A DNA stretch of 54,534 nucleotides. Origin: Candidatus Gastranaerophilales bacterium (GTDB lineage: Bacteria > Cyanobacteriota > Vampirovibrionia > Gastranaerophilales > Gastranaerophilaceae). Positions within the stretch are counted from its first letter, which is position 1; each line of letters begins with the position of its first letter. Both the position numbers and the translations under genes were made by a program. The notes below the pieces were generated by a model. It was not told the DNA's origin. It made no database searches and saw only the letters and a program-made list of their open reading frames with translations. The stretch spans positions 1 through 54,534 of the forward strand of contig CANQML010000001.1 in assembly GCA_947624935.1 (NCBI GenBank), in the 5' to 3' direction. This document shows, one piece after another, positions 13,519 to 30,668 of the stretch.

Positions 13519-13541
13519 GCAAAATAAACATTGAGGTAGTT

Positions 13542-14313: not shown

Positions 14314-14323
14314 GAGGTGATAT

Positions 14324-14841: not shown

Positions 14842-14843
14842 TT

Positions 14844-15288: not shown

Positions 15289-15290
15289 CT

Positions 15291-15692
15291 ATGAGTAAAA
15301 TATTTCTTAAAATGGTTTTTATTGATATAAAAGAAGATTGTCCGACTTTCTTGCTGAAAGAAGTGTATGAAATACGAAATGTTATGTACACTTATATAGA
15401 CGATAAAGAAGAAATAGAGAAGATAAAGCAAGGTTTTGAAAAAGACGGCTTGGATTGCTTTATCGAGGACGGCGTACTTTATATCACGGGAATAGACAGA
15501 AAAAATAAAGAGAGAATAGAGGCAGGTATAAAAGAGCTAACAGAAAAAATGGAAGCTATAAGAAAGTTTGAAGCTATGCCTAATCCCATAATAAACGATT
15601 ATCCCAAAACAGATGATTATGAGAAAGACTATATAGACCGCCTTGCCGAAAAATATCGTAAAGAGGCAGAAGATAAAGGTAAATTAAACTAA
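15291..15692 (+). CDS. hypothetical protein
   Basis: Operon context only. Confidence 0.5.
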   Translation: MSKIFLKMVFIDIKEDCPTFLLKEVYEIRNVMYTYIDDKEEIEKIKQGFEKDGLDCFIEDGVLYITGIDRKNKERIEAGIKELTEKMEAIRKFEAMPNPIINDYPKTDDYEKDYIDRLAEKYRKEAEDKGKLN

Positions 15693-15706
15693 AAGGGGAA
15701 CTGTGT

Positions 15707-15934
15707 ATGTCATATTATTGTATTAGCTTGGCTTGCAAAAAATTTGAGCAATGCAAAAGAGCTTGTATTTATGCTAATTTTCCCAATGTAGCCATAGAAG
15801 ATTTTTCATATTATGGTTCTTCAAGTTGTCATATTGACAAAGACGGCAAACAACATTTTGAAAATGAATATTGGTGCGGAGCTAACGGAAATTACAAAAT
15901 GTTTATACCAATAACAGAGGGAATTAACAAATAA
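15707..15934 (+). CDS. Cys-rich hypothetical protein
   Basis: Operon context only. Confidence 0.5.
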   Translation: MSYYCISLACKKFEQCKRACIYANFPNVAIEDFSYYGSSSCHIDKDGKQHFENEYWCGANGNYKMFIPITEGINK

Positions 15935-15936
15935 AA

Positions 15937-16584
15937 ATGAAATACTTTGCAATAGACGATAACAAAACCGTTTCTAAACTTGAATATATCGAAAACGAAA
16001 TGAGTGATTTTCTCGATAAACTTGCCATAGAAAAGCAAGAAAACGAAATGAGAAAAAAGCCGTTACCGATAGAGTTTAATACACGGATATATAACAAGTT
16101 AGAATTAGTTATGTTAAAGGCTGAAAGTCCTATGTCTAACAACGAGGCTTTGTGTATATCTGCAAGCGAGTTTTATGACCTTTATAACGAATACTGCGAG
16201 CTTTGTTGTTGGATAGAAAATAAAGTAGGTATTCCGTATTATAAAAACAAACCCGAATTTTGTAATTATTGCGCGATAACGACGGAGGCTTTTGATACGA
16301 TAAAGACAACGGGCGGGAAAATAGACGGACACCAAATGGAAGCTGTAAACGATATTGATACAAGAATAGCCAACTCTATACTTGTATCGGCTGAAAACGC
16401 CGAGATTAAATCTAAAATGGCAGAATTTAGGTTAGGGGCTAAAAACGGTTTAGGGCATAGAATACAGACAGTCAATAATCACGAGCCTGTAATGGTATTG
16501 CCTATAAGAGAAACAGATTTTTCGCCCATATCGGAAATAGCACCGCCTAAAATGCCTAAACAAATAACGAATAAGAAAGAATAA
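15937..16584 (+). CDS. possible terminase small subunit-like protein
   Basis: The segment KPEFCNYCAITTEAFDTIK...DTRIANSILVSAEN...MAEFRLGAKNGLG resembles the HTH and C-terminal motif of Terminase_2-type small subunits. Weak, by recall only. Confidence 0.35.
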   Translation: MKYFAIDDNKTVSKLEYIENEMSDFLDKLAIEKQENEMRKKPLPIEFNTRIYNKLELVMLKAESPMSNNEALCISASEFYDLYNEYCELCCWIENKVGIPYYKNKPEFCNYCAITTEAFDTIKTTGGKIDGHQMEAVNDIDTRIANSILVSAENAEIKSKMAEFRLGAKNGLGHRIQTVNNHEPVMVLPIRETDFSPISEIAPPKMPKQITNKKE

Positions 16585-16669
16585 CGGTTAAACCCCTCTC
16601 AAACGCACAGAATAGCCCCTCTACGGCTCGATAATACTTTTCTCGATAAAGTCATTAGGTAAACAATAA

Positions 16670-16698
16670 AAGCCGTTAGAATTGAAATTAGACGGCTT
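16670..16698 (+). terminator. stem-loop, possible terminator
   Basis: AAGCCGT-N15-ACGGCTT. The T-tract is not immediately adjacent. Confidence 0.3.
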
Positions 16699-16729
16699 AA
16701 AATTGGTTTTATGTTTTTTATCAATATGC

Positions 16730-16758
16730 TTGACAATAAAACAGAAAAGTAGTATAAT
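16730..16758 (+). promoter_or_regulatory. consensus promoter TTGACA-17-TATAAT
   Basis: TTGACA at 16730..16735 and TATAAT at 16753..16758. Confidence 0.75.
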
Positions 16759-16839
16759 GATAGAGTAGTAAGTAGAGTGCCGCTATTTATTATGAATTTA
16801 ATAGGTTAGAATTACCCCTCGTGATAGGAAAGGACGGCA

Positions 16840-16866
16840 CCCGAGTACTTCACTTGGGGTTTTCTT
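16840..16866 (+). terminator. leader terminator/attenuator between promoter and gene
   Basis: CCCGAGT-ACTTC-ACTTGGG then GTTTTCTTATT, preceded by a long-range stem GTGCCG (16777) / CGGCAC (16835). Confidence 0.5.
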
Positions 16867-16877
16867 ATTAAATTACA

Positions 16878-17282
16878 ATGTCGAGAGGAAAGAAAATTAC
16901 TCCGTTCAAAGACTATGAGCAAGTAACGGATAGAAACGGGTATGAAGTTAATTATTTACGAATAACAAGTATTCAATTAGCGTGTATGAACGAATTATCG
17001 GCAAACGCTTTTCGCTTGTATGTAATGATGAAAAGTTATGCAAAAGGTGAAGTGCAGTTTACTTACCCATACAGAATTTATAAAAACATTTTTTCAAAGC
17101 AAACATTTATAAAGGTTAGGCAAGAGCTTGTTGATAAAGGCTATATAGAGCCGTTCCACTCCCACAAAACAATGAGGACTGAAAACGAATACAGATTTAG
17201 TAGTGTTTGGCGTACTCGCAATAAACAAGTTATAGCCGATATAATCAATAGGGAAAAGAGGAAACCTAATAAGAAAACCTAA
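16878..17282 (+). CDS. winged-helix DNA-binding protein (paralogue of 12969..13376)
   Basis: See the 12969 entry. LSANAFRLYVMMKSYAKGEVQF...RQELVDKGYIEP...YRFSSVW. Confidence 0.5.
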   Translation: MSRGKKITPFKDYEQVTDRNGYEVNYLRITSIQLACMNELSANAFRLYVMMKSYAKGEVQFTYPYRIYKNIFSKQTFIKVRQELVDKGYIEPFHSHKTMRTENEYRFSSVWRTRNKQVIADIINREKRKPNKKT

Positions 17283-17317
17283 TAGGGTGGCATAATATTG
17301 TATATCTTCCTAAAAAA

Positions 17318-17432
17318 TAGACAGTGCAAGCGGTGAAAAACAGCCTAAAACAACACAAATCTTGTCTATTTTTGGAACAGTGCAATACAATCTTGTCTAA
17401 AAAATAGGAAAGATTTTGCGTTACACTGTCTA
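17318..17432. repeat. cluster of short direct and inverted repeats upstream of the HNH gene
   Basis: TAGACAGTG (17318) pairs with CACTGTCTA (17424). AATCTTGTCTA occurs twice (17358, 17389) and ACAGTGCAA twice (17321, 17377). Confidence 0.5.
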
Positions 17433-17455
17433 ATTCTTGAACAGCCAAAATAACT

Positions 17456-17800
17456 ATGAAAAGCAAATACAGAAAAAAGTATTTAGAATATCTTAAAAGC
17501 GATAAGTGGCAAGAAGTAAGGAAAGCAAAGGCAAAGGAACAGAATTACACCTGCGAGCGTTGCCATAAAGTGATTAAGAAAGGTTTTCATATTCACCATA
17601 AAACCTATGAGCATTTAGGCAATGAGCCGTTAAGCGATTTAATGTTTTTATGCGAAGATTGCCATAAGGAAATACACAAAATCATTGCTAAAAAGAAAAT
17701 GAGGAAGTCTAAAACTTCCCCAAAGAACAAGAATAAGCGTAAAACGGTGCGTAAGCCGTCTAAAAAGCCCTCTGTGGCAAAGAAAAGGTTTTCTCGATAA
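17456..17800 (+). CDS. HNH endonuclease
   Basis: CERCH...HIHHK...CEDCHKEIH, with a basic C-terminal tail. Confidence 0.8.
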   Translation: MKSKYRKKYLEYLKSDKWQEVRKAKAKEQNYTCERCHKVIKKGFHIHHKTYEHLGNEPLSDLMFLCEDCHKEIHKIIAKKKMRKSKTSPKNKNKRKTVRKPSKKPSVAKKRFSR

Positions 17801-17852
17801 TTTATTCATAGAAAAGAAAAAGGGCATTAAAACGCAAAATAAAGGGCAAGAA

Positions 17853-17876
17853 AAAGAGCGGGTTATTCCGCTCTTT
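17853..17876. terminator. bidirectional terminator between convergent operons
   Basis: AAAGAGCGG-GTTATT-CCGCTCTTT, with an A-run upstream and a T-run downstream. Confidence 0.7.
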
Positions 17877-17881
17877 ATGTT

Positions 17882-18166
17882 TTATTTATCATACTTAAAT
17901 GTGAAATAAGCAATAGCTTGTGGGCAATTATACATTTTCATATAATCTTTATCGTCATACCGCTTTGTGCCAACAAGATATGTATGCCAATCTATGCGCT
18001 TGTCATAGTCGTAATAGCTAAAAACTAAATCTTCTCTCGCAAAAGCGTTTTCGTGATAATCTACAAGGAAGTCTAAAAAATCTTCCATTGTATTAAATTC
18101 CTTTGATTGTGATAATGCCTCGTCCAATGACATCATTGACCCAGCGGGTCTGTAAATAATTTTCAT
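17882..18166 (-). CDS. hypothetical protein
   Basis: Last gene of the leftward operon. Confidence 0.5.
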   Translation of the reverse strand: MKIIYRPAGSMMSLDEALSQSKEFNTMEDFLDFLVDYHENAFAREDLVFSYYDYDKRIDWHTYLVGTKRYDDKDYMKMYNCPQAIAYFTFKYDK

Positions 18167-18182
18167 AATTTAATTCTCCTTA

Positions 18183-18860
18183 TTAACTTTTTTCTTCTAA
18201 AATCTTCCGCAACTTACTTGCAGTAACCTCACATTCTCGTTCTTGATTATCAAATTTTATTTTTATCTTAAACGGGTATTCAGAAGAAATTTTTGTAATG
18301 GTTGCCTTTCTTTCTTGAACAAGCATTACCAACAAATCATCTACACATATAACACGCTCACCAACGGAAAACTCTTTTGCTATTCGACTATCTCTTTCTG
18401 TATCGCATAACTTTTCCAAAAGTCGCGCAATCGGAGTTGTTCCACCGTAATGATTAGTTTCGTTTGCATAGTTTTCAAACACAACAAAGTCATCATCTGT
18501 AAGTTTAGACATAAAATCTTTAACGGCGGTACAAAACTGTTCTCTAACTTTGTCTTTTTTCTCGACCACCTCTTTAACCTTTTCCGCAACCGCATTTTTC
18601 AATTCATTACATACAGCTTCCGCCGACAAAAAGCAATTCAATCTGCACTCTACGTCGTCTTTTTCTCTAATTTCATTACCGTGATAATATATTTCTTCAT
18701 AATAGCGTTTAATATTTTTTTCTGTGCAATCAATAGAGCCTTTTGCTTTTCGTGCAAGGTCGTTTGAAAAATTTTCAACGTGGTCTATATAACCACCTGC
18801 GTTATATTCGTTGTAAAATGTTTTCCCGCAAATCGGGCATTGCATAATTGTATATTTCAT
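18183..18860 (-). CDS. hypothetical protein with N-terminal zinc-ribbon
   Basis: MQCPICGKTF. No family recognised. Confidence 0.5.
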   Translation of the reverse strand: MKYTIMQCPICGKTFYNEYNAGGYIDHVENFSNDLARKAKGSIDCTEKNIKRYYEEIYYHGNEIREKDDVECRLNCFLSAEAVCNELKNAVAEKVKEVVEKKDKVREQFCTAVKDFMSKLTDDDFVVFENYANETNHYGGTTPIARLLEKLCDTERDSRIAKEFSVGERVICVDDLLVMLVQERKATITKISSEYPFKIKIKFDNQERECEVTASKLRKILEEKS

Positions 18861-18862
18861 TT

Positions 18863-19294
18863 TTAATTCTCCTTTTCCTTTTCTATTTTTTCTTTTAGCT
18901 TAAAAACATATTGTCTTGATACACCAAAACGCTTTGCAATAGAACTCATAGTTTCGTTTGTAAAGCTCATTTGCCTAATCGCTTGAATTATATCGCTTGT
19001 TTGTTTACTTCGCGTTCTTGGGCGTTTTATACCGCTTAAAGCTATCTTTACAGTTGTTGCCGAGCATTTATATTTATTTTTCAAGTAATCAATATCTGTA
19101 AAGCCGTTAAGACAGTCCTCACGGATTTTATCAAAGTCAATTCTATGATTGCTTGCTTTGTGTATTCCGCTACCGCTAATCACTTGATTAACATAAACAT
19201 AAGGCACTCCTAAAAGAATAGCTATCTCTTTTGCCGTATGCGTTTTATAAAGCATTAAGATTGATTGCTTTTGCTCGTAAGTGATAAGTGCCAT
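18863..19294 (-). CDS. DNA-binding protein with two HTH motifs
   Basis: TAKEIAILLGVPYVYVNQVIS and TMSSIAKRFGVSRQYVFKLKEK. ATG 19294 (MALITY) is preferred. Confidence 0.5.
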   Translation of the reverse strand: MALITYEQKQSILMLYKTHTAKEIAILLGVPYVYVNQVISGSGIHKASNHRIDFDKIREDCLNGFTDIDYLKNKYKCSATTVKIALSGIKRPRTRSKQTSDIIQAIRQMSFTNETMSSIAKRFGVSRQYVFKLKEKIEKEKEN

Positions 19295-19893
19295 TATTTC
19301 TCTCTCCTTGTAAGCGTTCCGCATAGCGCACAATAAATTTGACCTGTCCGAATTTCGTCGCCATTTTTTATCTGTTTAGCGCAACTTTTTACCCAATTAT
19401 ATGCTAATGGGTTTTGTGCGGCTTCGGTTATCTTCTCTTTCGCTATTCTTTTGTTTTCTTCCGTCAATTCGGGGAGCAATTTCCAACCAAGCTCACTTAT
19501 ACCTTGTTTACAATCATTTTCCGTTGGGAACACATAACACTCCTTATGTATTGCTCCGATAATAGTATGTATTTCCCCTATTTGTATTAGCTTGTATGAA
19601 ATAGAATACTTATTTATGTTTACTTTTGTAATTTTACAAGGTACAGGTAAATAGCCTAAATAGCTATAACTCATTCTGCCTATCGCGTAAACAGTATCTC
19701 CAACTTTGTATTTTGGGACAAGTCCACCGCGCTCCGATTTTAGCCAAGTTGTAATACAAGCAATACAGTTTTTGTATTCTTGACATCTTTTATATCCAAC
19801 CATACACAAATCGTCAATATTTTCCCCGCCTCTTTTTATCACCCAAGCCAGCTCGTTATCTGTTAAAGTCATAAGATATTCTCTTCCTGTCAT
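19294..19893 (-). CDS. hypothetical protein
   Basis: GAGGTG RBS before ATG 19893 (MTGREY). Confidence 0.5.
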   Translation of the reverse strand: MTGREYLMTLTDNELAWVIKRGGENIDDLCMVGYKRCQEYKNCIACITTWLKSERGGLVPKYKVGDTVYAIGRMSYSYLGYLPVPCKITKVNINKYSISYKLIQIGEIHTIIGAIHKECYVFPTENDCKQGISELGWKLLPELTEENKRIAKEKITEAAQNPLAYNWVKSCAKQIKNGDEIRTGQIYCALCGTLTRREK

Positions 19894-19901
19894 ATTACAC
19901 C

Positions 19902-20330
19902 TCAATTCTGTTTTAATTCCGCAATAACATTTTCAATATTCCACTCTTTGCGAAGTTTCAAATTCCGTTTTGCTTTGTTTGCTTTATCTTTGCCGTGAAA
20001 TTGAAAATCCCTAACGAACGGAACACCGATAGTCAAAAGCAGGTCCTCTGCCGTCCAAAGTGCGCCCTCAATGCACTTCAAATCGTCCTCGCATAATGCT
20101 CTGTCTTTATATTCATACTCTCCTTCTAAAAATCGAACGCCTAAATCTCCGTCTATGGAAATGCCTTCCTCGTCAACGGATATAACGGCATAAACTTTCG
20201 TATAATACCCCTCTAAAATGCGAATAGAATAAATTGCACAGTCATAATCTCTATCGCACTTCTCCCAGCCTGTTTTTGTTAAATAATCAAAAATTTTATT
20301 ATCAAATGCTGTTCTATCGCTGAATTTCAT
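19902..20330 (-). CDS. hypothetical protein
   Basis: Operon context only. Confidence 0.5.
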   Translation of the reverse strand: MKFSDRTAFDNKIFDYLTKTGWEKCDRDYDCAIYSIRILEGYYTKVYAVISVDEEGISIDGDLGVRFLEGEYEYKDRALCEDDLKCIEGALWTAEDLLLTIGVPFVRDFQFHGKDKANKAKRNLKLRKEWNIENVIAELKQN

Positions 20331-20344
20331 ATTTATATCCTCAC

Positions 20345-20662
20345 TTATAGATATTTCTGTAATCTTGTGCGGAAATCAATCGGCTCATTGTCGTATTTGA
20401 CATATATATGCTCGTCATTGTGTAAACCGTCAATGCTAACCCAATTAAAACCTTTTAATTCCGTTACAAGCCAATGTGCCTCTTTCATAATCGCTCCGAG
20501 CGCAACGGCAGGGACAACCCAGCCGTCATATTGATTGCCCATAAAATCAATACATTTTTCTCTCTTGATATTCTTCTTGAAAAAAGCGTATGCTTTGCTT
20601 TTCGGCTCAATATCCATACCAAAAGTTATTCCGTCAAAATATTCTGCGTGTAATTCTTTCAT
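20345..20662 (-). CDS. hypothetical protein
   Basis: ATGA overlap with the upstream gene. Confidence 0.5.
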   Translation of the reverse strand: MKELHAEYFDGITFGMDIEPKSKAYAFFKKNIKREKCIDFMGNQYDGWVVPAVALGAIMKEAHWLVTELKGFNWVSIDGLHNDEHIYVKYDNEPIDFRTRLQKYL

Positions 20663-20838
20663 ACATTATGTTCCTTTACTGTCTTTTCAATAAATTCAAG
20701 TGTTTCCTTAAAAGCAACTTCTCGCCCAGCAAAATAATCGTCATACTTTTTATATTTGCCGTAAACTGAATTATTATGTGCTTTGCTAATCGATATAAGT
20801 AGCCAATCTTTAATTTCCTTTACTATATCATTTTCCAT
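20659..20838 (-). CDS. small protein (59 aa), not in ORF track
   Basis: MENDIVKEIKDWLLISISKAHNNSVYGKYKKYDDYFAGREVAFKETLEFIEKTVKEHNV*. Confidence 0.45.
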   Translation of the reverse strand: MENDIVKEIKDWLLISISKAHNNSVYGKYKKYDDYFAGREVAFKETLEFIEKTVKEHNV

Positions 20839-20840
20839 AA

Positions 20841-21416
20841 TTACCTATTCTCCTTTAATATTCTTGATACAGTAGAGGGTGATATTCCTAACTCTACCGC
20901 TATTTCTTTACCCATTTTACCTTGTGAAGATAAATCTAAAACTCTATCTGATAAGGCTTTGCTTTTGTTTGGTCTGCCGAGAATTATGCCCTCGTCCTTT
21001 TTCGCGGCAAGAGCTTGCCTTGTACGGTCTGCTATCAAGTCGCGCTCGAATTGTGCAAATGCACTCATAATATGGAATACAAGCGCAGACATAGCGTCCA
21101 TTTTATTATCACCGCCTACTGTTAGGTTTTCCTTTAAGAATATAACCTTTACTTTTTTATCTCTAACAAGCAAGTTAGTTGTATCTATCAAGTCTTGTAC
21201 ACTTCTTGCCATACGGCTCATACTTTCAAAATACACCTCATCACCCGCTTGCAAGACTTCAAGCAAGTTATTAAATTCTTCTCTTATACAAGCCTTTTTA
21301 GTTCCGCTTATTTTTTCCTCAAACAGTCTGTCAAGCTGATAATCTTTCAAAACATATTCTTGCCTTGTGTATTCCTGTTTGTCGGCTACGGACACTCTTA
21401 TATAGCCGTATCTCAT
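20841..21416 (-). CDS. small serine recombinase (resolvase/invertase family) with C-terminal HTH
   Basis: MRYGYIRVS (catalytic Ser), ...SRMARS..., ...FAQFERDLIADRTRQAL..., and C-terminal GKEIAVELGISPSTVSRIL. ATGA overlap with the upstream gene. Confidence 0.9.
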   Translation of the reverse strand: MRYGYIRVSVADKQEYTRQEYVLKDYQLDRLFEEKISGTKKACIREEFNNLLEVLQAGDEVYFESMSRMARSVQDLIDTTNLLVRDKKVKVIFLKENLTVGGDNKMDAMSALVFHIMSAFAQFERDLIADRTRQALAAKKDEGIILGRPNKSKALSDRVLDLSSQGKMGKEIAVELGISPSTVSRILKENR

Positions 21417-21883
21417 TTTAATATCTCCCATACTTTATTTGTTTTGAAATCTATTAAATAATCCCTGTTATTTTCGGCTGTTCTTGTTTTTGCAAGTTTT
21501 TTGTTTGCCACATTATGCCACCAAAAATAATCGCCATAACCTTGCCACCGTAACGATATAAAATCATTAGTCAATCGGTCAAAAAAGTTAAACTCCCAAA
21601 ACAAATCATTTGCCCATTTTTCATATCTTGCAAAACCCATAAACATTTTCTTTTGAGTTGGCAAAACATAAAATTCTTCTTTTGATTTACCTTTCCCCCT
21701 TGTGCCGTAGAGTTTAAGCTCATTAAGATTGGGCAGTATAATACCATAAACATTATTAAGTGTTTTTTGTAAATCAACATAGTTATACCAGCAATACAAA
21801 TCAATTTCTTTTTCTGTTTGCCCCATTACTTTTGCAGAATATCTGCCAAGTAGTTTGCGTACATATATAAGTTCATATCTCAT
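21413..21883 (-). CDS. hypothetical Trp/Tyr-rich protein
   Basis: Operon context only. Confidence 0.5.
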   Translation of the reverse strand: MRYELIYVRKLLGRYSAKVMGQTEKEIDLYCWYNYVDLQKTLNNVYGIILPNLNELKLYGTRGKGKSKEEFYVLPTQKKMFMGFARYEKWANDLFWEFNFFDRLTNDFISLRWQGYGDYFWWHNVANKKLAKTRTAENNRDYLIDFKTNKVWEILK

Positions 21884-21888
21884 AGTTA

Positions 21889-22068
21889 TTACTCCTTGTC
21901 CTCTTTTTTCAAGATTTCTCGCGTTGTAGTTTGTAAAAGTTGTCTCCCTCGATAATACTCATTGTCGCAATATGAACTTTTGCCGTCATTTTTGTGCCTT
22001 ATGTCATTATCAAGCATACCTGTTATTTGAAAAATATTTAACAATCGCTCTAATAATTCTTTTTCCAT
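21889..22068 (-). CDS. small hypothetical protein (59 aa)
   Basis: GAGGA RBS before ATG 22068 (MEKELL). Confidence 0.4.
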   Translation of the reverse strand: MEKELLERLLNIFQITGMLDNDIRHKNDGKSSYCDNEYYRGRQLLQTTTREILKKEDKE

Positions 22069-22070
22069 AG

Positions 22071-22310
22071 TTAATAATCCTCGTCGTTCCTCTCTTTTTT
22101 TATTTTTTGTCCGCAAAAGGGACAATAACTAAACGGTACGCTTACTGGTGTATCACCCATTGCAGATATAAGAGGTGGATATGCATAAAAGTCTATCGCC
22201 AATCCGCCCCGTGTTCCTTGAAATCTGTGATAGCCACTATGGGCAGAACAAATTTGTTTTATATCTTCCTCTATATCTTCTTCTGTGTAATAAGTGTAAT
22301 CATCTATCAT
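22071..22310 (-). CDS. hypothetical protein with C-terminal zinc-ribbon-like CPFCG
   Basis: AAGGAG lies 8 nt upstream of ATG 22310 (MIDDYTYY). Confidence 0.5.
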   Translation of the reverse strand: MIDDYTYYTEEDIEEDIKQICSAHSGYHRFQGTRGGLAIDFYAYPPLISAMGDTPVSVPFSYCPFCGQKIKKERNDEDY

Positions 22311-22323
22311 AATCTTTACTCCT

Positions 22324-23367
22324 TTATTTATCATATTTTCCTGTTATACAGTTAAGAATTTCTCTATCGCTAATATTCGCGCATTGACAACGGAAAAGTG
22401 TTGTTGAGTTCGGCAATTTAATATAGCTATCGCCCTTGCCTAAAAGTTCCGCACCCTTGCCGCAGTCAATAACGTTCATTGAGTGCCTTGCGTTTGCCGT
22501 AGTCAAGCAAACCTTTGTAGGCAGATTATATTTAATCAAGCCTGTTACAACGCTTGCTCGCGGGTCTTGCGTTGCCACAATAAGGTGTATGCCCGCCGCT
22601 CTACCCTTTTGTGCTATCCTCACGATATATTCCTCTACTTCGTTTTTAGAGGTCATCATAAGGTCGGCTAACTCGTCTATAACAACCACAATTCTATTGC
22701 CGTCATACTTCTTTAACCCTTTTGCTTGCATTTCACCATACCGCCGTTCCATTTCGTCAACGGCGATAGAAAGCCACTCTAACGCCTCGCTATTATCTTT
22801 TGCAACCTTATATATGCGTTTGTGTATATCTTGCTCATACAAGCCAAATTCCGCGCCTTGTTTAGGGTCTATTAAAATTAAACTCGCAGTTGAAAAACAT
22901 AACAGCTCCATAATAAGACTGTTTAGCAAACAAGATTTACCACTTCCTGTTGACCCCGCTATAAGTAAGTGTGCCGCTTCGTCCATATTTGTAACAATAA
23001 AATCGAAGTTACCTTTGCCGAAAGAAATATAGCCTTTTTGCCTTGCCGCTTGTTCGCCGTCTTTATCTTCGGCAATAGCTTTTTTAATAGCGTGTGCGCA
23101 ATCACCGCACGATATAAATTGCCTGTCGCAGTTACGCGATAATCGGAAAGTGCCGCCCTCTAACGGCTCATAGTTATAGCCAGCAAAAACGCGCATTTCC
23201 TTTATCACTCTATTAAACGCAGAAAGGGATACGGCAGAAATGATTTTAAACTCAAAATTTCCCGCTTGCGGTGAAAAGTAACAGCGTAATAATTCAACTT
23301 GTATTCCCGCCCTTGCAAAATAGTTAGTCAAATTTACGCTCATTTGCTCTATTGTTATATCGCCCAT
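22324..23367 (-). CDS. FtsK/SpoIIIE-family DNA translocase ATPase (motor domain only, no TM)
   Basis: Walker A GSTGSGKS, Walker B VVVIDELADLM, and IVATQDPR. Confidence 0.85.
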   Translation of the reverse strand: MGDITIEQMSVNLTNYFARAGIQVELLRCYFSPQAGNFEFKIISAVSLSAFNRVIKEMRVFAGYNYEPLEGGTFRLSRNCDRQFISCGDCAHAIKKAIAEDKDGEQAARQKGYISFGKGNFDFIVTNMDEAAHLLIAGSTGSGKSCLLNSLIMELLCFSTASLILIDPKQGAEFGLYEQDIHKRIYKVAKDNSEALEWLSIAVDEMERRYGEMQAKGLKKYDGNRIVVVIDELADLMMTSKNEVEEYIVRIAQKGRAAGIHLIVATQDPRASVVTGLIKYNLPTKVCLTTANARHSMNVIDCGKGAELLGKGDSYIKLPNSTTLFRCQCANISDREILNCITGKYDK

Positions 23368-23369
23368 AG

Positions 23370-23726
23370 TTATGCCCTCTTCCCCGTTGCGCTATCTTTA
23401 TTAGCTTGTTCTATAAGCTCGGCAAGCCTTGCACTCGCCCTTTTGCCCCAATCGCTGTTAAGCCCTTTGGCAAGAATATCAATATGTGCAGAAACATATT
23501 CCTTGCAAGCGGAAAAGGTTACAAATCCGCCCGCACCTACTCCCGCGCCTGTGCTTGCTTCTGTTGCTTGCCAATAGCCGTGCTGTTTCCTATAAAAGAC
23601 AACAATTATATTGCCGTCTTTATCTTTATGTTCCATCCTATGCCCCATAACAGGTCTTGCATAAAAAGTATCTGTATTTTCCAATTCATCAAATGTGTGC
23701 ATACACTCATAATATAACTTATTCAT
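23370..23726 (-). CDS. hypothetical protein
   Basis: Operon context only. Confidence 0.5.
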   Translation of the reverse strand: MNKLYYECMHTFDELENTDTFYARPVMGHRMEHKDKDGNIIVVFYRKQHGYWQATEASTGAGVGAGGFVTFSACKEYVSAHIDILAKGLNSDWGKRASARLAELIEQANKDSATGKRA

Positions 23727-23738
23727 AGTTATGCCCTC

Positions 23739-24053
23739 TCAATAAATAATACAACCCTCTATATAGTTTGATTTTATGCCTTTGTCTTTATCGCAGAATA
23801 TCAACGGCTCATCGACAATCTTTATAAAAACATTGTTTGCCTTGCCTACTCCCCAAAGTAATCGCTTGTCCGTCATAAAGGTTTTGCCGTGTTCTGTTTT
23901 CCAAACAAAATGTTTATGTGTTACCTTTACGCAGTCCACCTTGCTTGCAAAAACAGTTAGCCCGCTTCCGCTATTACAAACATAGCAATACTTTTTGTCG
24001 GTGTTTATCCACTCATAGTTGCGTTTAAAGTCGTTCCAAATTCTAATATACAC
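23739..24053 (-). CDS. hypothetical protein (GTG start)
   Basis: AAGGGGG RBS. Confidence 0.45.
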   Translation of the reverse strand: MYIRIWNDFKRNYEWINTDKKYCYVCNSGSGLTVFASKVDCVKVTHKHFVWKTEHGKTFMTDKRLLWGVGKANNVFIKIVDEPLIFCDKDKGIKSNYIEGCIIY

Positions 24054-24065
24054 AGTTATACCCCC

Positions 24066-24287
24066 TTAAATAAATTGCCTTATATACTGTTTATACGGTG
24101 TTTTTGTGCCTGTTGCTTTTACTTCGTCATAAGTCATCAACGCTTTTATTCTGTCAAGCTCGCGCTGTTCCTTTTCGTCTTTGGGCGGAATATAGTTCCC
24201 CAAACCCGCAAAAGCGTTGTGTCGTCTTGCCGTCATTATCTTAAAATCTTTAAATGAAATAGTTAATCTTTGATTATAATTTAACAT
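24066..24287 (-). CDS. hypothetical protein
   Basis: AAGGGGG RBS. Confidence 0.5.
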   Translation of the reverse strand: MLNYNQRLTISFKDFKIMTARRHNAFAGLGNYIPPKDEKEQRELDRIKALMTYDEVKATGTKTPYKQYIRQFI

Positions 24288-24298
24288 AATATACCCCC

Positions 24299-24508
24299 TT
24301 AACCTCTGTAATCAACAATTCTATGTTTGCCGTTTTCTTCTCTTTCAATATCTATTTTTTCGGTAAAAAACTGTGATATAAACCTATGCGCCATCGCATT
24401 TGCGCCGTTGTAATATTCAAGTTCAGCTTGCTCGCCGTGCGTAATTGCTTCAAAGTAAACCTCATCAAGCCATTTTGCAACACGTTCAAAAAGTTCCTGT
24501 TGTTCCAT
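24299..24508 (-). CDS. hypothetical protein
   Basis: Preceded by the repeated AAATAATTTATAAAGAGG module. Confidence 0.5.
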   Translation of the reverse strand: MEQQELFERVAKWLDEVYFEAITHGEQAELEYYNGANAMAHRFISQFFTEKIDIEREENGKHRIVDYRG

Positions 24509-24611
24509 AATTAAACCTCTTTATAAATTATTTATTTAAGCCGTAACGGCTCATTTTTATTGTTGTGATAAAATATACTACCTCGCCCATAAAAGGGCGC
24601 AGAATTGAAAT

Positions 24612-24869
24612 TTAGGCGGTTAGAATTGATTTCAAGCTATCGAAAAAATCAAACAGCGATTTTAATGTTCGTTTGTCGTATGTCGCCGTGCTTGCGTCAT
24701 TCGGACTTTTTGATTTTGCACAATAAATAAGCGAGTGCGGCGCAGGAATATCGAGCATATCACAAAGAATATAAAAATCAAGTTGTTCTAATTCTTCCTT
24801 GCCTTTTGCCCATTGTTTAGCCGCTTCCAATACGGCTTGATTTCTCTTTTCGCATTGCTCAATAGTCAT
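24612..24869 (-). CDS. hypothetical protein
   Basis: Preceded by the repeated AAATAATTTATAAAGAGG module. Confidence 0.5.
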   Translation of the reverse strand: MTIEQCEKRNQAVLEAAKQWAKGKEELEQLDFYILCDMLDIPAPHSLIYCAKSKSPNDASTATYDKRTLKSLFDFFDSLKSILTA

Positions 24870-24957
24870 AAAATACCTCTTTATAAATTATTTTTCCGCT
24901 ATGCGGTGGGGCGGGTAGTGTTTTAGGAGTTTCCCGCTATCGCTCCGAAAAGTGCAG

Positions 24958-25101
24958 TTATGCTCTCCTTAAATATAAATTTTTAACTTTTTCAAACTCT
25001 TCTTGACTTATCGCAGAAAGGGGCAGACCCCCGAACCACAAACGGCAGAAAGACAGAAAGCCACATAAAGTTTTAATATTTGTATGAATATAGAATTGCA
25101 T
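24958..25101 (-). CDS. small hypothetical protein (47 aa)
   Basis: Internal ATG (MQFYIH). The RBS is weak. Confidence 0.3.
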   Translation of the reverse strand: MQFYIHTNIKTLCGFLSFCRLWFGGLPLSAISQEEFEKVKNLYLRRA

Positions 25102-25117
25102 AATTATACACCGCCAT

Positions 25118-25303
25118 TTAAAACCAAACAAAAACCTTTTTACCCGCCTTTTCAAGCTCTTCAACGGTATAAATTTCCCCGTTGATTTTTACGCACTGTT
25201 GCCCCCATTCATCCGAATAAACGCGTCGGTCAATATGCGCGTTGCCTTGCGTGATTGTCGCAAACAGCGGATAACCTGCGCAAAATTCTTTTTCAAGTGT
25301 CAT
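25118..25303 (-). CDS. small hypothetical protein (61 aa)
   Basis: AAGGAG before ATG 25303 (MTLEKEF). Confidence 0.45.
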   Translation of the reverse strand: MTLEKEFCAGYPLFATITQGNAHIDRRVYSDEWGQQCVKINGEIYTVEELEKAGKKVFVWF

Positions 25304-25404
25304 TTTGTTAAATCTCCTTTGCCTGTCATCATCAGTACGGGGCGGCAAACCCCCGCAGACGGGCAGAAAAAGCCCGTTTCGACTGTTTAATTAAATCACC
25401 CCCC

Positions 25405-25527
25405 TTATAAATACAGAAAATCGCCATTTTGCCAAACAATTTGAGAATAGCCGCGCCTTTTTAATCTCAAAATCGTAGAATTAGCGGGATATTGCCACAT
25501 TTTTTTACCTTTTGCGTAATAAGTCAT
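25405..25527 (-). CDS. small hypothetical protein (40 aa), not in ORF track
   Basis: GGAG RBS. MTYYAKGKKMWQYPANSTILRLKRRGYSQIVWQNGDFLYL*. Confidence 0.35.
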   Translation of the reverse strand: MTYYAKGKKMWQYPANSTILRLKRRGYSQIVWQNGDFLYL

Positions 25528-25644
25528 AATAATATACTCCTCTTTATGCGTTTAGTTTTGCCGTGTGCGGTCTTTGGACGCTCTCGGCGGACGCATTAAC
25601 GGCGGGCAAGCCGCCGCCCATCTGCTATAATTTCACCCCCTTTA

Positions 25645-25992
25645 TTATGCTAATGCCCTGTTTATAAGCTCGGCGCGCAATTCCGCAATCTTTTTATTTG
25701 CGCGTTCTTCCGCGCTTTTGTCGGATAAGTGCGCCCAATATTCTGCGATTGCATTTTCCGCTTCCTCTTCGAGGTCGTCATACTTTACGCGCGCGCCCGT
25801 TAAATTCCTATAACCTGTGCAAACACAAACGCCGCCGCCGATGTCGTAAGCGTCCCAATTCCAACCGTAAACGCCTTTGTTATAAGCGTAAGCATTTAAG
25901 CCGCGCAACAGATATTGCGCGCCGCAATAGCCTATTCTAATAACTTGCTTGTTTGTTGTTTCTAACTGTTTGTTTGTCAATTTGATTTTCAT
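25645..25992 (-). CDS. hypothetical protein (115 aa, GC-rich codons)
   Basis: AAGAGGG RBS before ATG 25992 (MKIKLTNKQ). Contains IRIGYCGAQYLL...GVYGWNWDAYD. Confidence 0.5.
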   Translation of the reverse strand: MKIKLTNKQLETTNKQVIRIGYCGAQYLLRGLNAYAYNKGVYGWNWDAYDIGGGVCVCTGYRNLTGARVKYDDLEEEAENAIAEYWAHLSDKSAEERANKKIAELRAELINRALA

Positions 25993-26087
25993 AATAAAAC
26001 CCTCTTTATAATTTATTTGCGGGCGGGCTTGCAACCGCCACCGCCGCATTAACCCCTTGCGGGGCTGCTCTGCGTTACAAATTTATT

Positions 26088-26219
26088 TTAATTATTTGTA
26101 CAAATACAAGCGATTAAATACACCGCGCGCGGGTTTTTTTCGTGCATTTCCCACGCGAGCGCGTCCGCCTCTTCAAATGTTTTCCCGCCCGCGAGCATTC
26201 CCGCGCTTTGCTCTACCAT
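26088..26219 (-). CDS. small GC-rich ORF, start ambiguous (43 aa from the ATG; the frame is open for 77 codons without a canonical start)
   Basis: MVEQSAGMLAGGKTFEEADALAWEMHEKNPRAVYLIACICTNN*. The upstream in-frame part reads ...YEFYCPSGNTFTFCAQCDKSAAAYARQ. Confidence 0.35.
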   Translation of the reverse strand: MVEQSAGMLAGGKTFEEADALAWEMHEKNPRAVYLIACICTNN

Positions 26220-26315
26220 TTGCCGCGCATACGCCGCCGCGCTTTTATCGCATTGGGCACAAAATGTAAATGTATTGCCACTCGGGCAATAAAATTCATA
26301 ATTGCCAAACGATAA

Positions 26316-26370
26316 CCGCCCCCCGAGTCAAGGTTAATTTGATTATAACACCGCCCGCCCCCCGTGTCAA
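26316..26370 (-). repeat. two copies of TTGAC(A/T)CGGGGGGCGG, 39 bp apart; the distal copy supplies the -35 of the leftward promoter
   Basis: Plus-strand ccgccccccgAgtcaa (26316..26331) and ccgccccccgTgtcaa (26355..26370). Confidence 0.7.
26342..26370 (-). promoter_or_regulatory. consensus promoter TTGACA-17-TATAAT for the leftward operon
   Basis: The reverse complement reads TTGACA cggggggcgggcggtgt TATAAT. Confidence 0.75.
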
Positions 26371-26419
26371 CCCTTTTATTATACTTTTTTTAATATTCTT
26401 TTAGTTTTTTTAATATGTA

Positions 26420-26437
26420 CACGCGCCCGCGCGCGTG
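26420..26437. other. GC hairpin CACGCGC-CCGC-GCGCGTG; the motif CGCGCCCGC occurs three times (26422, 26452, 26649)
   Basis: Read directly. GC islands sit inside an AT-rich intergenic region. Confidence 0.6.
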
Positions 26438-26506
26438 ATATAAATATCCTGCGCGCCCGCCCTGCTAACCCTTGCAGGCGTGGAAGGAGCCGCCCCGCGC
26501 CCCCGC

Positions 26507-26640
26507 TTTTTTCTTTTTATTTATTTTTCTTTTTTGTAAATTATTCAAAATTACTTTTTGTAATTTTGTACACTAAATAATTATGTAAATTATTCAATGT
26601 ATTGATATGATTATTTAATGATTTTTGTAAAAAAATAAAG
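26507..26640. other. extremely AT-rich tract (about 13% G+C by hand count) with TTTTGTA half-sites and a 13-bp direct repeat; DNA-unwinding-element candidate
   Basis: TTTTGTA at 26532, 26556, 26564 and 26623. GTAAATTATTCAA at 26536 and 26585. Confidence 0.45.
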
Positions 26641-26720
26641 TAACATATCGCGCCCGCACTCGCTCATTCTGTTTTTTCGTGCTTTTTATCCCGTCTAACC
26701 GATTTATAAAACGTTCATAT

Positions 26721-26749
26721 TTGAAATTTTGTTGATTTTTGGCTAAAAT
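26721..26749 (+). promoter_or_regulatory. candidate promoter TTGAAA-17-TAAAAT inside the gene-free hub
   Basis: TTGAAA at 26721..26726 and TAAAAT at 26744..26749. Confidence 0.45.
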
Positions 26750-26761
26750 ATGCCAAAATCA

Positions 26762-26785
26762 GGGCGGGAGGGGTGCCCGTGGGGG
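26762..26785 (+). other. canonical G-quadruplex motif GGG-C-GGG-A-GGGG-TGCCCGT-GGGGG; a second G block GGGGTGGGGG lies at 26806..26815
   Basis: Read directly. Four G3+ tracts with loops of 1, 1 and 7 nt. Confidence 0.6.
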
Positions 26786-26821
26786 CAAAGGTTGCGGATT
26801 TGAAAGGGGTGGGGGTAACCT

Positions 26822-26890
26822 CATACACTTACAATTTAGAAATTTGAATTTAGCTATTCACATACACTTACAAAATTAAAATTTCAATTT
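26822..26890. repeat. two imperfect 30-bp direct repeats (25/30 identical), period 39 bp
   Basis: CATACACTTACAATTTAGAAATTTGAATTT versus CATACACTTACAAAATTAAAATTTCAATTT. Confidence 0.7.
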
Positions 26891-26891
26891 C

Positions 26892-27203
26892 AAGTCTTTA
26901 TCAAGACTTTCATTTTAGTTTATGAGATTATTCGGTAAATCCGAATTATCTCTTTACTCACTTAAACTGACATAAAAGCTATAAAAGATTATCAGTATAT
27001 TGATAATGATAGGTAGTAATCATTTCAAAAACGCCGTTAGAGCTTATAATTAGCGTTCTAACGGGTTTTAGAATAAACTATGGGTAAATACACGGAAAGG
27101 CTAAATAAGGGTTTAGAAAGCAAATAAAAGCCTTTCCGAGAGAGTATAATTTTATTGGTGTTTTAGTGGTAAAATATTTCCTATAAAGATAGAAATAGGA
27201 AAA
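26892..27203 (+). other. run of six stem-loops, including a terminator-like one at 27034..27069
   Basis: Stems at 26892..26909 (7 bp), 26924..26952 (12 bp, 1 mismatch), 26988..27007 (7 bp), 27034..27069 (8 bp then GTTTTA), 27093..27138 (10 bp) and 27177..27202 (8 bp). Confidence 0.55.
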
Positions 27204-27221
27204 GGGTATTTTTAGAGAGCA

Positions 27222-27405
27222 TTTTGTAGTCTATGGTGTTTACAAAATAGGGGTAAAGTGGCATTTTTGTAGCCTGTACTGTTTACAAAAATTTTGTAAC
27301 CTACTGTGTTTACAAAAAGTATGATTTTGTAGCCGTGTGCGTTTACAAAATTTTTTCTGTGTAATAAAATTTATTTATAATTTTGTAGTTATTTTGTTTA
27401 CAAAA
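27222..27405. repeat. five 25-26-bp palindromic iterons TTTTGTA(G/A)-N8-9-GTTTACAAAA
   Basis: Copies at 27222..27247, 27265..27290, 27292..27317, 27325..27350 and 27381..27405. Confidence 0.85.
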
Positions 27406-27425
27406 TTGATTTAGTATGATATAAT
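27397..27425 (+). promoter_or_regulatory. promoter TTTACA-17-TATAAT whose -35 lies inside iteron 5
   Basis: TTTACA at 27397..27402 and TATAAT at 27420..27425. Confidence 0.55.
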
Positions 27426-27521
27426 GAATATACAGAGCAAGGACAGCCCTATTGCAAGGGGTTTCCGAGCGTTCCTGCGGATTACTTGCTTTGTACATTT
27501 TTGCTTGGGGAACGCAAGTTA

Positions 27522-28067
27522 ATGAAAAAGGTAACGAAATACATAAATGATACGCATAAGCCTGTACCGCTGTATGAGGGTGCGGACGGAGAGAAGTTGT
27601 TTGACGTGCCGCCGAACGGCGGTATGGCGAAGATATTTACGGAAGCGCAGATTAGAAGTCAAACGGCGTATGCAAGTAGAGTACAATACGATTGGAAGTT
27701 TATAAAGTGTATGGAAAATGAGCAAGAGATAATAATTCTGTTAAAAGACGACTTAAAGACTTTTTACGCTTTAACCGTAATGAAACATTTTCTGTTAAAA
27801 GATAGGAATATTTTAGTTAAAAATATAGTTAAGGACGGTAAAGAGCAAACAGTTAAGTTTACCGCTATTGATTTACAAGAGGCTTTGGGGTATAAGACGA
27901 GGCAAGCGGCAAGCAAGCATATTATGAAATTAAAGAGCTTGAATATAGTAAAGGGCATAAAGACAAAAGATTTCGGTTATGTTTTTGCTATTAACCCGAA
28001 TTACTATATGAACGGCACTTCTGTACCGAAAGAGATAAGTGAGTTATTCAACGAGGACAATAAATGA
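27522..28067 (+). CDS. winged-helix DNA-binding protein, putative iteron-binding replication initiator or regulator (RepL-like)
   Basis: wHTH-like LQEALGYKTRQAASKHIMKLKSLNIVKGI. It is the first gene after the iterons. ATG 27522 is preferred to the TTG at 27486. Confidence 0.4.
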   Translation: MKKVTKYINDTHKPVPLYEGADGEKLFDVPPNGGMAKIFTEAQIRSQTAYASRVQYDWKFIKCMENEQEIIILLKDDLKTFYALTVMKHFLLKDRNILVKNIVKDGKEQTVKFTAIDLQEALGYKTRQAASKHIMKLKSLNIVKGIKTKDFGYVFAINPNYYMNGTSVPKEISELFNEDNK

Positions 28068-28246
28068 TAGGTTGGATTGTAGCAGTAGTAGGTTTAATTT
28101 GTTTTATTGCAAGCATTTTTGCTTTTCGTAAGGCATATATAAAAGAAAAAGACGAGATAGGGTTGTTGTTTTTATTTACTATTGCTTTTGGGTTTTTGTT
28201 TGCTGTTGGCGGTACGGCGATTGCAATAATGTCGCTATTAAAATAA
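28064..28246 (+). CDS. small membrane protein (2 TM)
   Basis: Hydrophobic sequence; ATGA overlap. Confidence 0.5.
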   Translation: MIGWIVAVVGLICFIASIFAFRKAYIKEKDEIGLLFLFTIAFGFLFAVGGTAIAIMSLLK

Positions 28247-28265
28247 ATTTAACGAGAGGCTAATT

Positions 28266-28574
28266 ATGACAAAGCAAGAACTTGAAACTTTATTAGATAT
28301 GACAAAAAAAGAAAAACAAAGTTACGAAAATGCGCTGTTTGAAATAAAAAAATGTATGCAATCTGCGGCTGATATGTTTAATAGCGGTTTAGCCGAAGAA
28401 AGTGATTTTAACAACGGAATACAAAATGCTTTGTGCGTAATATCGGAAATAATAAATTCTCACATTTCTTCTTATTCTTACCTTAAATGTCCAAAATTCA
28501 AGTACACAGACGATGATAAACCTGCTTTTACTGTAATTGAGGGCGGGTTATCAAAAAAGAAACAAGAGGTATAA
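28266..28574 (+). CDS. hypothetical protein
   Basis: Operon context only. Confidence 0.5.
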   Translation: MTKQELETLLDMTKKEKQSYENALFEIKKCMQSAADMFNSGLAEESDFNNGIQNALCVISEIINSHISSYSYLKCPKFKYTDDDKPAFTVIEGGLSKKKQEV

Positions 28575-28575
28575 T

Positions 28576-28839: not shown

Positions 28840-28841
28840 TT

Positions 28842-29147: not shown

Positions 29148-29149
29148 TT

Positions 29150-30045: not shown

Positions 30046-30085
30046 AGAATTTTCTTAATATTGGCATAATAGTGGAGTTGAGTTA

Positions 30086-30301: not shown

Positions 30302-30314
30302 AGGAGTAATTTTT

Positions 30315-30644: not shown

Positions 30645-30668
30645 TAAAAATACAAGGATTGTATAATT

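Follow-up and report, generated by a model that had tools for sequence, protein, structure and literature searches.

Contig CANQML010000001.1, whose full 54,534 bases we call the window, is a complete tailed-phage genome of ~54.5 kb (its first 77 bases are identical to its last 77, which points to a closed circular assembly). It carries a leftward operon at 17882–26370 in which genes for an FtsK/SpoIIIE-like ATPase, a small serine recombinase, and a helix-turn-helix (HTH) protein lie among many small genes. To follow up the pairing of the first two, we clustered by BLAST all open reading frames (ORFs) from 105 IMG/VR and JGI loci around FtsK-like genes, together with 20 kb of the window, which gave 55 dereplicated groups. 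This co-occurrence analysis, proposed in a first-pass annotation of the window, showed that 18 of the 55 groups have a small serine recombinase from the BLAST cluster of the window enzyme (187–256 aa) no more than 5 kb from the FtsK-like gene, and that 21 have one no more than 10 kb away. We favor, with a probability of roughly 35%, the reading of the block as an early accessory operon with a conserved core that would work on the DNA of the phage to resolve or circularize it. Dimer resolution or segregation, one of the candidate roles that had been listed, is still the most attractive for the motor, and gene linkage is the evidence that points to it. The genes of the proposed core are as follows.

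22324..23367, minus strand: FtsK/SpoIIIE-like ATPase, 347 aa; Pfam FtsK_SpoIIIE (PF01580), E 1.6e-35, 123 bits against a cut-off of 24
20841..21431, minus strand: small serine recombinase, 191–196 aa; Pfam Resolvase (PF00239), E 3.2e-31, 108.8 bits against a cut-off of 23.3
18863..19294, minus strand: three-HTH protein, 143 aa from Met14; the long ORF 18863–19333 matches HTH_23 and Sigma70_r4
25645..25992, minus strand: first well-initiated gene, 115 aa, its start at codon 20 of the long ORF

Linkage and identity of the motor and the recombinase

The linkage spans two deep FtsK-like clades and occurs in three arrangements: within one operon, convergently, and across a divergent hub. In L001/L002, a complete genome of 54.3 kb, the recombinase gene lies directly 3' of the FtsK-like gene and is followed by a homologue of the last gene of the window operon (17882–18166), and the whole 8.2-kb block matches the window operon in its divergent and convergent boundaries. 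In a second group (L031, L034, L038, L040, and L046), with TerL and portal proteins 40 and 34% identical to those of the window, the recombinase (68% identical in L046) and a three-HTH homologue converge on a short FtsK operon; the three-HTH homologue, which stands beside the FtsK-like gene, is 23% identical. In L003, L014, and L041, the operon that runs into TerL and portal starts with a Cro-like HTH gene and the recombinase, and the FtsK mini-operon diverges from the hub at its start, headed in L003 and L041 by a homologue of the 25645–25992 gene. Each of five relatives encodes one small serine recombinase, and no tyrosine integrase was found in these five (four of them complete). No other site-specific recombinase was found in the scanned window ORFs or in four of the five relatives.

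In 27 of the 55 loci, the gene immediately after the FtsK-like gene is convergent with it and encodes a gp3-like protein (180–230 aa, with a borderline match to the P22 small terminase). TerL lies 3–6 kb away on the other side in these loci, which include L003, L014, and L041, and this placement puts the FtsK mini-operon inverted inside or next to the packaging region.

The ATPase had been described from the sequence as carrying Walker A and B motifs but no membrane anchor, and both statements are upheld by the Pfam match and by the hydropathy profile, in which the highest 19-residue window is the Walker A strand and no transmembrane segment appears. The Walker A (GSTGSGKS) and Walker B (VVVIDE) motifs do not vary among 24 FtsK-like homologues, nor do several arginines. 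A profile of these 24 sequences aligned with the Pseudomonas aeruginosa FtsK structure (PDB 2iuu) at E 2e-60, from the alpha domain through the end of beta. The alignment begins at query position 5, equivalent to chain position 90, and the alpha domain is present; it stops at position 338 of 342 in the profile, where the phage protein also ends, and the gamma domain is not present. Because the alignment spans alpha and beta to the very end of the protein, we regard it as an FtsK-like protein without the membrane domain, the linker, or the gamma domain.

Thousands of homologues of this protein exist, of which about 70 clusters are 45–96% identical, ~340 aa long, and mostly from gut metagenomes; many of these lie on contigs of 48–59 kb, and a few come from larger ones (above 100 kb, among them the clade-A homologues P0011 at 145 kb, P0068 at 161 kb, P0060 at 213 kb, and P0058 at 527 kb). 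Among cultured phages, relatives reach at most 44% identity, PLSDB plasmids held none above 40%, and no close homologue of the gene was found in ~1000 sampled genomes of two classes. The operon as a whole gave no megablast match to cultured phages. A scan of genome contigs with the family alignment returned output dominated by cellular ftsK genes, a family-specific DNA pattern found nothing in metagenome contigs, a second scan recovered only marine relatives (~34% identity), and IMG/VR scans with the homologues P0059 and P0022 yielded nothing close. A motor-domain tree gave strong support to the clade that holds the window protein, which branches off on a long stem (74 sequences, support 1.0); the sister group of cellular FtsK is a second clade, made up of short phage proteins.

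The first-pass annotation had argued that the phage has its own terminase and that the FtsK-like motor is therefore not the packaging enzyme. The data agree: TerL is encoded at 30971–33013, and the motor groups with cellular FtsK, which is far closer to it than packaging ATPases are (phrog_1358 at 5.1e-60, against 3.7e-13 for phrog_2666, the sole terminase-labelled PHROG matched). A second (satellite) packaging ATPase or a conjugation-type DNA exporter might be suspected from the weak matches to that terminase-labelled family, to pCW3 coupling protein structures (2e-34), and to TraB, and from the gp3-like, possibly small-terminase, gene that abuts the FtsK-like gene in the 27 loci. However, cellular FtsK is much the nearer relative, no operon product has a transmembrane segment by hydropathy, the operon holds no structural, capsid, or relaxase gene, and the gp3-like neighbor is on the opposite strand. 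The HTH protein of the window, which we considered as a small terminase, is not gp3-like either (hhalign probability of 5% against the gp3-like family). On the sequence data, a packaging or satellite ATPase appears excluded, and we hold this explanation to be extremely improbable. DNA transfer, which had also been put forward, is unlikely as well; in addition to the lack of membrane segments, the motor has no gamma or DNA-recognition domain and reaches 44.8 bits against 800 for TraB, and DNA export by this protein is thus unlikely.

Matches to defense systems were obtained with PADLOC, where the protein resembles SspH (1.4e-37) and Mad8 (6e-26) over most of the motor domain, as might be expected of a DNA-tracking ATPase in a phage-borne module for defense or superinfection exclusion of the SspH or MADS Mad8 kind. 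These are domain-level matches, weaker than those to FtsK proper, and a search of the 10 largest operon products revealed no other component of an SspH or Mad8 system; we consider such a role highly improbable.

The small serine recombinase, as the second enzyme had been called, is well supported by the Resolvase match and a C-terminal HTH. Its catalytic serine lies in YIRVS and aligns with Ser9 of Gin, the SRMAR arginines are present, and the C-terminal HTH scores 24.1 bits with GerE (cut-off of 23.5) and 21.0 bits with HTH_7, under the cut-off of 23.8. At 196 aa, and with a match to only the N-terminal part of phrog_95, the protein is not a large serine integrase. For comparison with its linkage in 21 of 55 loci, the recombinase has a match of any kind in only 313 of 50,697 cultured-phage records. 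The nearest solved structures are Mu Gin (the best), Sin, Tn3, and gamma-delta, at ~30% identity.

That the best structure is Gin, the best PHROG is "DNA invertase" (1.9e-53), and the best NCBIfam model is the Mpi master invertase (NF009949) raised the alternative of a Gin/Hin/Mpi-type enzyme flipping a phage promoter or gene segment. Against this, the Mpi score of 81.4 bits is below the family threshold of 272, no inverted-repeat pair rises above chance anywhere in the window, the tail-fiber end included, and there were no strand-switch joints among those listed. We specifically rejected an invertible tail-fiber or hub segment: at the tail-fiber end, inverted repeats did not exceed 12 nt, and the repeats in the divergent hub are the half-sites TTTTGTA/TACAAAA of a dyad motif that forms an array on the promoter of a RepL-like gene. 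A DNA invertase is therefore very unlikely.

Conserved core, replaceable genes, and the favored reading

To separate core from cargo, we mapped onto 13000–32900 assembled contigs of the source sample and of three further studies, bearing in mind that an alignment of assembled contigs alone cannot show minor inversion isoforms or molecule ends. The relatives from the three other studies (X7, X5, and X10, at ~90–97% identity) all keep the HTH gene (18861–19288) and the FtsK-like gene (22325–23381), and two of the three clearly keep 20848–21887, which holds the recombinase gene and a coupled ORFan. X7 (28.6 kb) retains 18861–19288, 20848–21887, 22325–23381, and 25318–26083 at ~94–97% identity; it is not alignable over 18169–18861 and 19288–20848, and it has 96 letters in place of 21887–22325 and 18 in place of 23381–25006. 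In X10, the HTH, recombinase, and FtsK-like genes are retained in separate pieces. X5 keeps the HTH gene, 19294–20838, and the FtsK-like gene, is not alignable over 17882–18860, and aligns with the recombinase gene over its last 150 nt only. All three relatives have lost or exchanged the majority of the ORFans. The pattern indicates that conserved genes form a backbone with replaceable small genes between them.

The majority of the small genes act as flexible cargo, which fits an accessory or anti-defense position. The first-pass annotation had placed them where anti-defense or host-shutoff genes are usually found; their exchange between relatives agrees with that position, but no ORFan could be tied to a known inhibitor. 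Homologues of known anti-defense or shutoff proteins were absent from searches of general libraries (Pfam and PHROGs for all operon ORFs, NCBIfam for 10), and two predicted folds had no PDB match.

In the reading that we favor, host RNA polymerase would drive a leftward early or accessory operon built in two layers. The first would be the conserved core, made up of the 25645–25992 gene, the soluble alpha-beta motor, the recombinase with its translational coupling to the gene ahead of it, and the three-HTH protein; the second would be the short, strain-variable cargo genes, which are candidates for host takeover or anti-defense. The recombinase would act at a site in the phage genome and convert replication multimers, or injected terminally redundant DNA, to monomer circles. 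The FtsK-like ring would pump along double-stranded phage DNA and could thereby bring sites together, clear bound proteins, or help to unlink products. The three-HTH protein might provide the sequence recognition that the motor lacks or might be a Mor-like transcription regulator. By analogy, such a scheme would rebuild the logic of FtsK-XerCD/dif or P1 Cre/lox around a serine recombinase. The narrower proposal, that a gamma-less motor and a serine recombinase, perhaps guided by the three-HTH protein, form a phage DNA resolution or circularization machine, kept as a near-core function by a lineage of non-integrating gut Firmicute phages, is more doubtful, and we advance it tentatively.

A number of observations weigh against this interpretation. 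We know of no system in which a serine resolvase needs a motor. The search for res-like sites suggested by the first-pass annotation was negative: the window yielded no res-like, hix/gix-like, or inversion site and no repeat pair above chance, for a class of enzymes with crossover sites that may be short and degenerate. No intergenic gap precedes the recombinase gene, and the dyad array of the hub is phage-specific and located on the promoter of the RepL-like gene. The recombinase gene is 9.5 kb from TerL, which weakens for this phage the P1-like argument of a site near pac. Cultured phages with FtsK-like genes are mostly those of Bacillus and Mycobacterium, and the recombinase matches come mostly from Ralstonia and enterobacterial phages; with overlap compared by phage group, these largely different sets suggest that the motor does not generally need this recombinase. 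The linked loci also have distant TerL homology in common, and part of the linkage may therefore be inherited synteny rather than functional coupling.

Some of these points bear on a different explanation, in which the two enzymes are unrelated passengers and the FtsK-like protein is a soluble host takeover factor that might act on the host nucleoid, strip proteins from DNA, or enter and poison septal FtsK rings, while the recombinase would have some other use. Its PHROGs match belongs to the category "moron, auxiliary metabolic gene and host takeover," the phage genera that carry FtsK-like genes (Bacillus and Mycobacterium) give few or no recombinase matches, the motor domain is 40–45% identical to cellular FtsK, and the gene sits among swappable ORFans in an early operon with a host-type consensus promoter. 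Conversely, the motor is kept with the recombinase across deep divergence and in three arrangements, and the long stem that separates the window clade from cellular FtsK speaks against its joining host FtsK in one assembly. We regard host takeover as possible.

The alternative of a lysogeny module, expressed to establish or maintain a prophage, would make the recombinase an integrase, as in the phiRSM-type filamentous phages of Ralstonia, whose resolvase-like enzymes reportedly act in this way. Neither the scanned window ORFs nor four of the five relatives yielded another site-specific recombinase, the best phage matches to the enzyme include resolvase-like genes from filamentous phages of Ralstonia, and a few close homologues of the motor are on contigs of 145–527 kb. 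In clade-B relatives, moreover, a divergent hub separates the FtsK mini-operon from a Cro-like HTH gene and the recombinase, which lie opposite it. These points are opposed by the absence of a close FtsK-like homologue from the ~1000 sampled genomes of two classes and of any phage-host junction from the contig joints and loose ends listed, and the window sequence does not recur elsewhere in the genome with which it was binned. No CI-type or CI-sized repressor was found in the Pfam-scanned window ORFs, where the only XRE-type HTH proteins have 62 and 64 aa. We consider lysogeny unlikely.

Operon anatomy and phage genome

All ORFs with a ribosome-binding site (RBS) in 17882–26049 are on the minus strand, and both GC skew and AT skew change sign over exactly the leftward block, so that the leftward operon of the first-pass annotation is real. 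It is bracketed, as had been stated, by one consensus promoter and one bidirectional terminator.

26342..26370, minus strand: leftward promoter, TTGACA-17-TATAAT with a TG extension, 12/12
25993..26341, minus strand: leader of ~350 nt, GC-rich, with hairpins
25592..25630, minus strand: GC hairpin followed by GTTAATGCG, with an 86–88% match in L031, L034, L038, and L040
17853..17876, both strands: two-way intrinsic terminator with a 10-bp stem and T-runs on both strands, common to the converging rightward arm

The promoter (26370..26342) was the sole perfect sigma-70 site in the promoter scan and has an A/T-rich stretch upstream. The sequence TTGAC[A/T]CGGGGGGCGG occurs in two copies 39 bp apart (26316–26331 and 26355–26370), of which one covers the promoter -35 element, and the pair is a possible operator. 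The copies of the GC hairpin in L031, L034, L038, and L040 sit just upstream of the FtsK mini-operon, around 9180–9215, and a related copy of the hairpin/GTTAATGCG motif lies at 26044–26055 on the minus strand of the window. Stem changes between the conserved hairpins preserve pairing. The hairpin at 25592–25630 is not a terminator because it has no T-run; it may be an element for RNA processing, stability, or protein binding.

Where about 22 genes had been counted, refined starts gave 20 solid genes and two doubtful ones (24958–25164 and 26088–26219, the latter of 43 aa), which have no RBS and an atypical codon-position GC. The tight coupling with ATGA overlaps that had been described holds for the packing of the sixteen genes from 24287 to 17882, whose intergenic gaps run from -19 to +16 nt, but not for the promoter-proximal 2 kb, where gaps of 100–250 nt contain GC-rich hairpins. 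Only one ATGA overlap is certain (at 20662); a second, at 21416, exists only if translation of the recombinase begins at codon 6, where the RBS is better, and one more junction is TTGA (at 19905). The minus-strand starts at 25992, 24869, and 24508 have a near-identical translation-initiation region of ~20 nt, AAATAA[T/A]TTATAAAGAGG, and three other operon genes have GGGCATAACT or GGGGGTATAACT ahead of the start codon. These repeated regions suggest cassette-like gene exchange at fixed joints.

Only three operon genes had been called recognizable, and this was corroborated: the remaining 19 products had no Pfam match at the curated cut-off and no PHROG of known function, and NCBIfam gave nothing for the 10 of these that were searched. 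The third recognizable product had been named a double-HTH protein, and although it is indeed an HTH protein, it consists of three tandem homeodomain-like units instead of two. Its likeness to clusters with resolvase-type HTH, Mor, or terminase-N domains is at the clan level only (Atlas scores of 0.90–0.92), and it matches Cbp1 at E 7e-4 with 19.5 bits against a cut-off of 140.

Among the small operon genes, only 25645–25992 belongs to a large family. Its members are phage proteins of ~110 aa in 1035 representative clusters at E <= 0.001, with no Pfam match and with the near-invariant motifs GYC..Q, GVYGWN, and TGYR. The predicted model (pLDDT 93) found no fold match in the PDB, and its BFVD matches were uncharacterized phage proteins only. 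It appears to be a widespread early protein of phages that is not yet catalogued. The other small genes are given below.

25405–25527 (40 aa) and 25118–25303 (61 aa), minus strand: two small ORFs
24612–24869, 24299–24508, 24066–24287, 23739–24053, and 23370–23726, minus strand: five ORFans
22071–22310/22334 and 21889–22068, minus strand: two small ORFans
21413..21883, minus strand: ORFan, 156 aa, its stop overlapping the recombinase start
20659–20838, 20345–20662, 19902–20330, and 19294–19905, minus strand: four ORFans
18183..18860, minus strand: acidic ORFan, 225 aa, with an N-terminal CxxC
17882..18166, minus strand: acidic protein, 94 aa, last gene of the operon

The sole homologue found for 21413–21883 is 97% identical and lies on a 28,555-bp contig, the same size as X7, which covers this stretch. 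A homologue search with 17882–18166 gave three hits, and in L001/L002 a 39% identical homologue is 0.2 kb 3' of the recombinase gene; a fold search (pLDDT 76) gave no match, the best, AcrIE2 at Z 3.9, being noise. An Atlas search with 18183–18860 reached a best score of 0.85, to an unnamed entry. A jackhmmer link between 19902–20330 and the gene 3' of a marine ftsK was discarded as drift from a seed match of E 0.0024 over 38 residues.

Rightward genes take up nearly the whole circle, from ~27.4 kb round to 17.8 kb, and the leftward block is the one long exception. Landmarks of the genome are as follows.

30971–33013: TerL, 680 aa, from the PHROGs scan
38799–40397: portal gene
41525–42565: major capsid gene
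46583–48568: tape measure gene

The window also encodes a C5 methylase and DnaD- and DnaC-like loaders, and the rightward arm 3' of the tail genes holds RusA-, Gam-, Erf-, DnaD-, and SSB-like genes and an HNH endonuclease. Pfam scans of the window ORFs yielded no tyrosine integrase, ParA, or ParB; for about 20 further ORFs, PHROGs was the only library used. The two XRE-type HTH proteins mentioned above, which are Cro-sized, are encoded on the plus strand in the rightward arm (7269–7457 and 13542–13736). In L034 (4484–7519) and L046 (4894–7929), TerL has 1011 aa, compared with 680 aa in the window, and matches in two separated pieces, which suggests an intein or homing-endonuclease insertion of ~330 aa. 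A match to AgrB, the agr-type quorum-sensing membrane peptidase (PF04647, E 4.8e-12), appeared among the pooled window ORFs; from this pooled scan, its probable carrier is the 201-aa ORF 1859–2464 on the plus strand, which has six hydrophobic segments.

In the hub, the half-sites TTTTGTA/TACAAAA (26500–26890 and 27222–27410) form five dyads on the promoter of the RepL-like gene and two oppositely oriented clusters 350–900 bp leftward, and the hub as a whole resembles a single origin or operator field. The dyad array was absent from all related loci compared and is unique to this phage. A likeness between 777–840 and the region upstream of FtsK in the L046 group proved to be merely a common consensus promoter.

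The phage contig was binned with a 2.2-Mb genome of 37% G+C that is 97% complete, in which no recurrence of the window sequence was found; the bin is therefore a putative host only. Public runs containing the window sequence are labelled rabbit-gut metagenomes. Delivery of DNA into the forespore during sporulation found no support as a role, as this bin, if it is the host, has no Spo0A.

Relation to known systems

Phage FtsK-like genes of unclear role are already known, and this locus adds another; to our knowledge, the FtsK/SpoIIIE-like genes of Bacillus, Listeria, and mycobacterial phages have gone two decades without a function. What appears new in detail is a motor cut to alpha and beta and its linkage to a recombinase across a phage lineage. 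A full-text literature search for phage FtsK-like proteins together with serine recombinases returned only unrelated matter. Anchor-less FtsK/SpoIIIE-like proteins have been described in mycobacteriophage Omega (gp203) and Cluster J and in the Bastille-like, W-beta, and BtCS33 Bacillus phages, with a role that the papers call unclear or, speculatively, connect with sporulation (PMC3706429, PMC4528723, PMC3359378). Those of Cluster J keep a divergent gamma-like tail (PMC3706429), whereas the window motor stops after beta. One paper reports that an FtsK/SpoIIIE-like gene adjoins plasmid-type functions in a Bacillus phage-plasmid. Phage FtsK-like proteins in general (phrog_1358 and phrog_3551) are, like the window protein, anchor-less motors among the non-structural genes of tailed phages; they are at most 44% identical to it, and the gene of the window motor is linked to a small serine recombinase.

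The locus is part of a large uncultured gut-phage clade with a bare alpha-beta motor and repeated linkage to a small serine recombinase, and no tyrosine integrase was found in this phage or in five relatives. The linkage leads to the testable hypothesis that motor and recombinase jointly process phage DNA, and the contrast of core and cargo within one operon guides the choice of deletion targets and of genes for anti-defense screening. If the linkage is inherited synteny only, the operon would be an ordinary early accessory region.

Among mobile-element motors, pCW3 TcpA and actinomycete TraB are FtsK-family ATPases like that of the window, but they are membrane-anchored, and TraB has a DNA-recognition domain; the window motor has no transmembrane segment and scores 44.8 against 800 bits for TraB and 35 against 366 bits for TraD. 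The three-HTH protein resembles Mu Mor-like activators, the HTH-type N-terminal domains of terminases, and Sulfolobus Cbp1 only at the clan level; with tandem-HTH proteins it has in common three HTH units, homeodomain-like or resolvase-type, in ~140 aa, and it is distinct from the gp3-like family beside FtsK in other phages. The recombinase has the plan of Mu Gin, Hin, Sin, Tn3, gamma-delta, and Bacteroides Mpi, a catalytic domain and a C-terminal HTH in ~190 aa, but is ~30% identical to these, and no res/hix/gix-like site or adjacent intergenic control region was found for it.

The closest structural comparison for the motor is the C-terminal domain of P. aeruginosa FtsK (PDB 2iuu/2ius), with which it has alpha, beta, Walker A and B, and conserved arginines alike. 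Cellular FtsK also has a membrane domain, a linker, and gamma; the phage motor, at 347 aa, has none of these and lies on a long separate branch. The gamma winged-helix domain of FtsK reads KOPS and activates XerD. P1 has no integrase and a RepL replicon. As functional analogies, FtsK-XerCD/dif and P1 Cre/lox use a motor and/or a recombinase to return multimers or a redundant genome to monomer circles. The window differs from FtsK-XerCD and Cre in having a serine rather than a tyrosine recombinase and no gamma domain, and no site or partition genes were found in it. Should the resolution-machine reading be true, it would give phage FtsK-like genes a first defined role and would represent a serine counterpart of FtsK-XerCD/dif.

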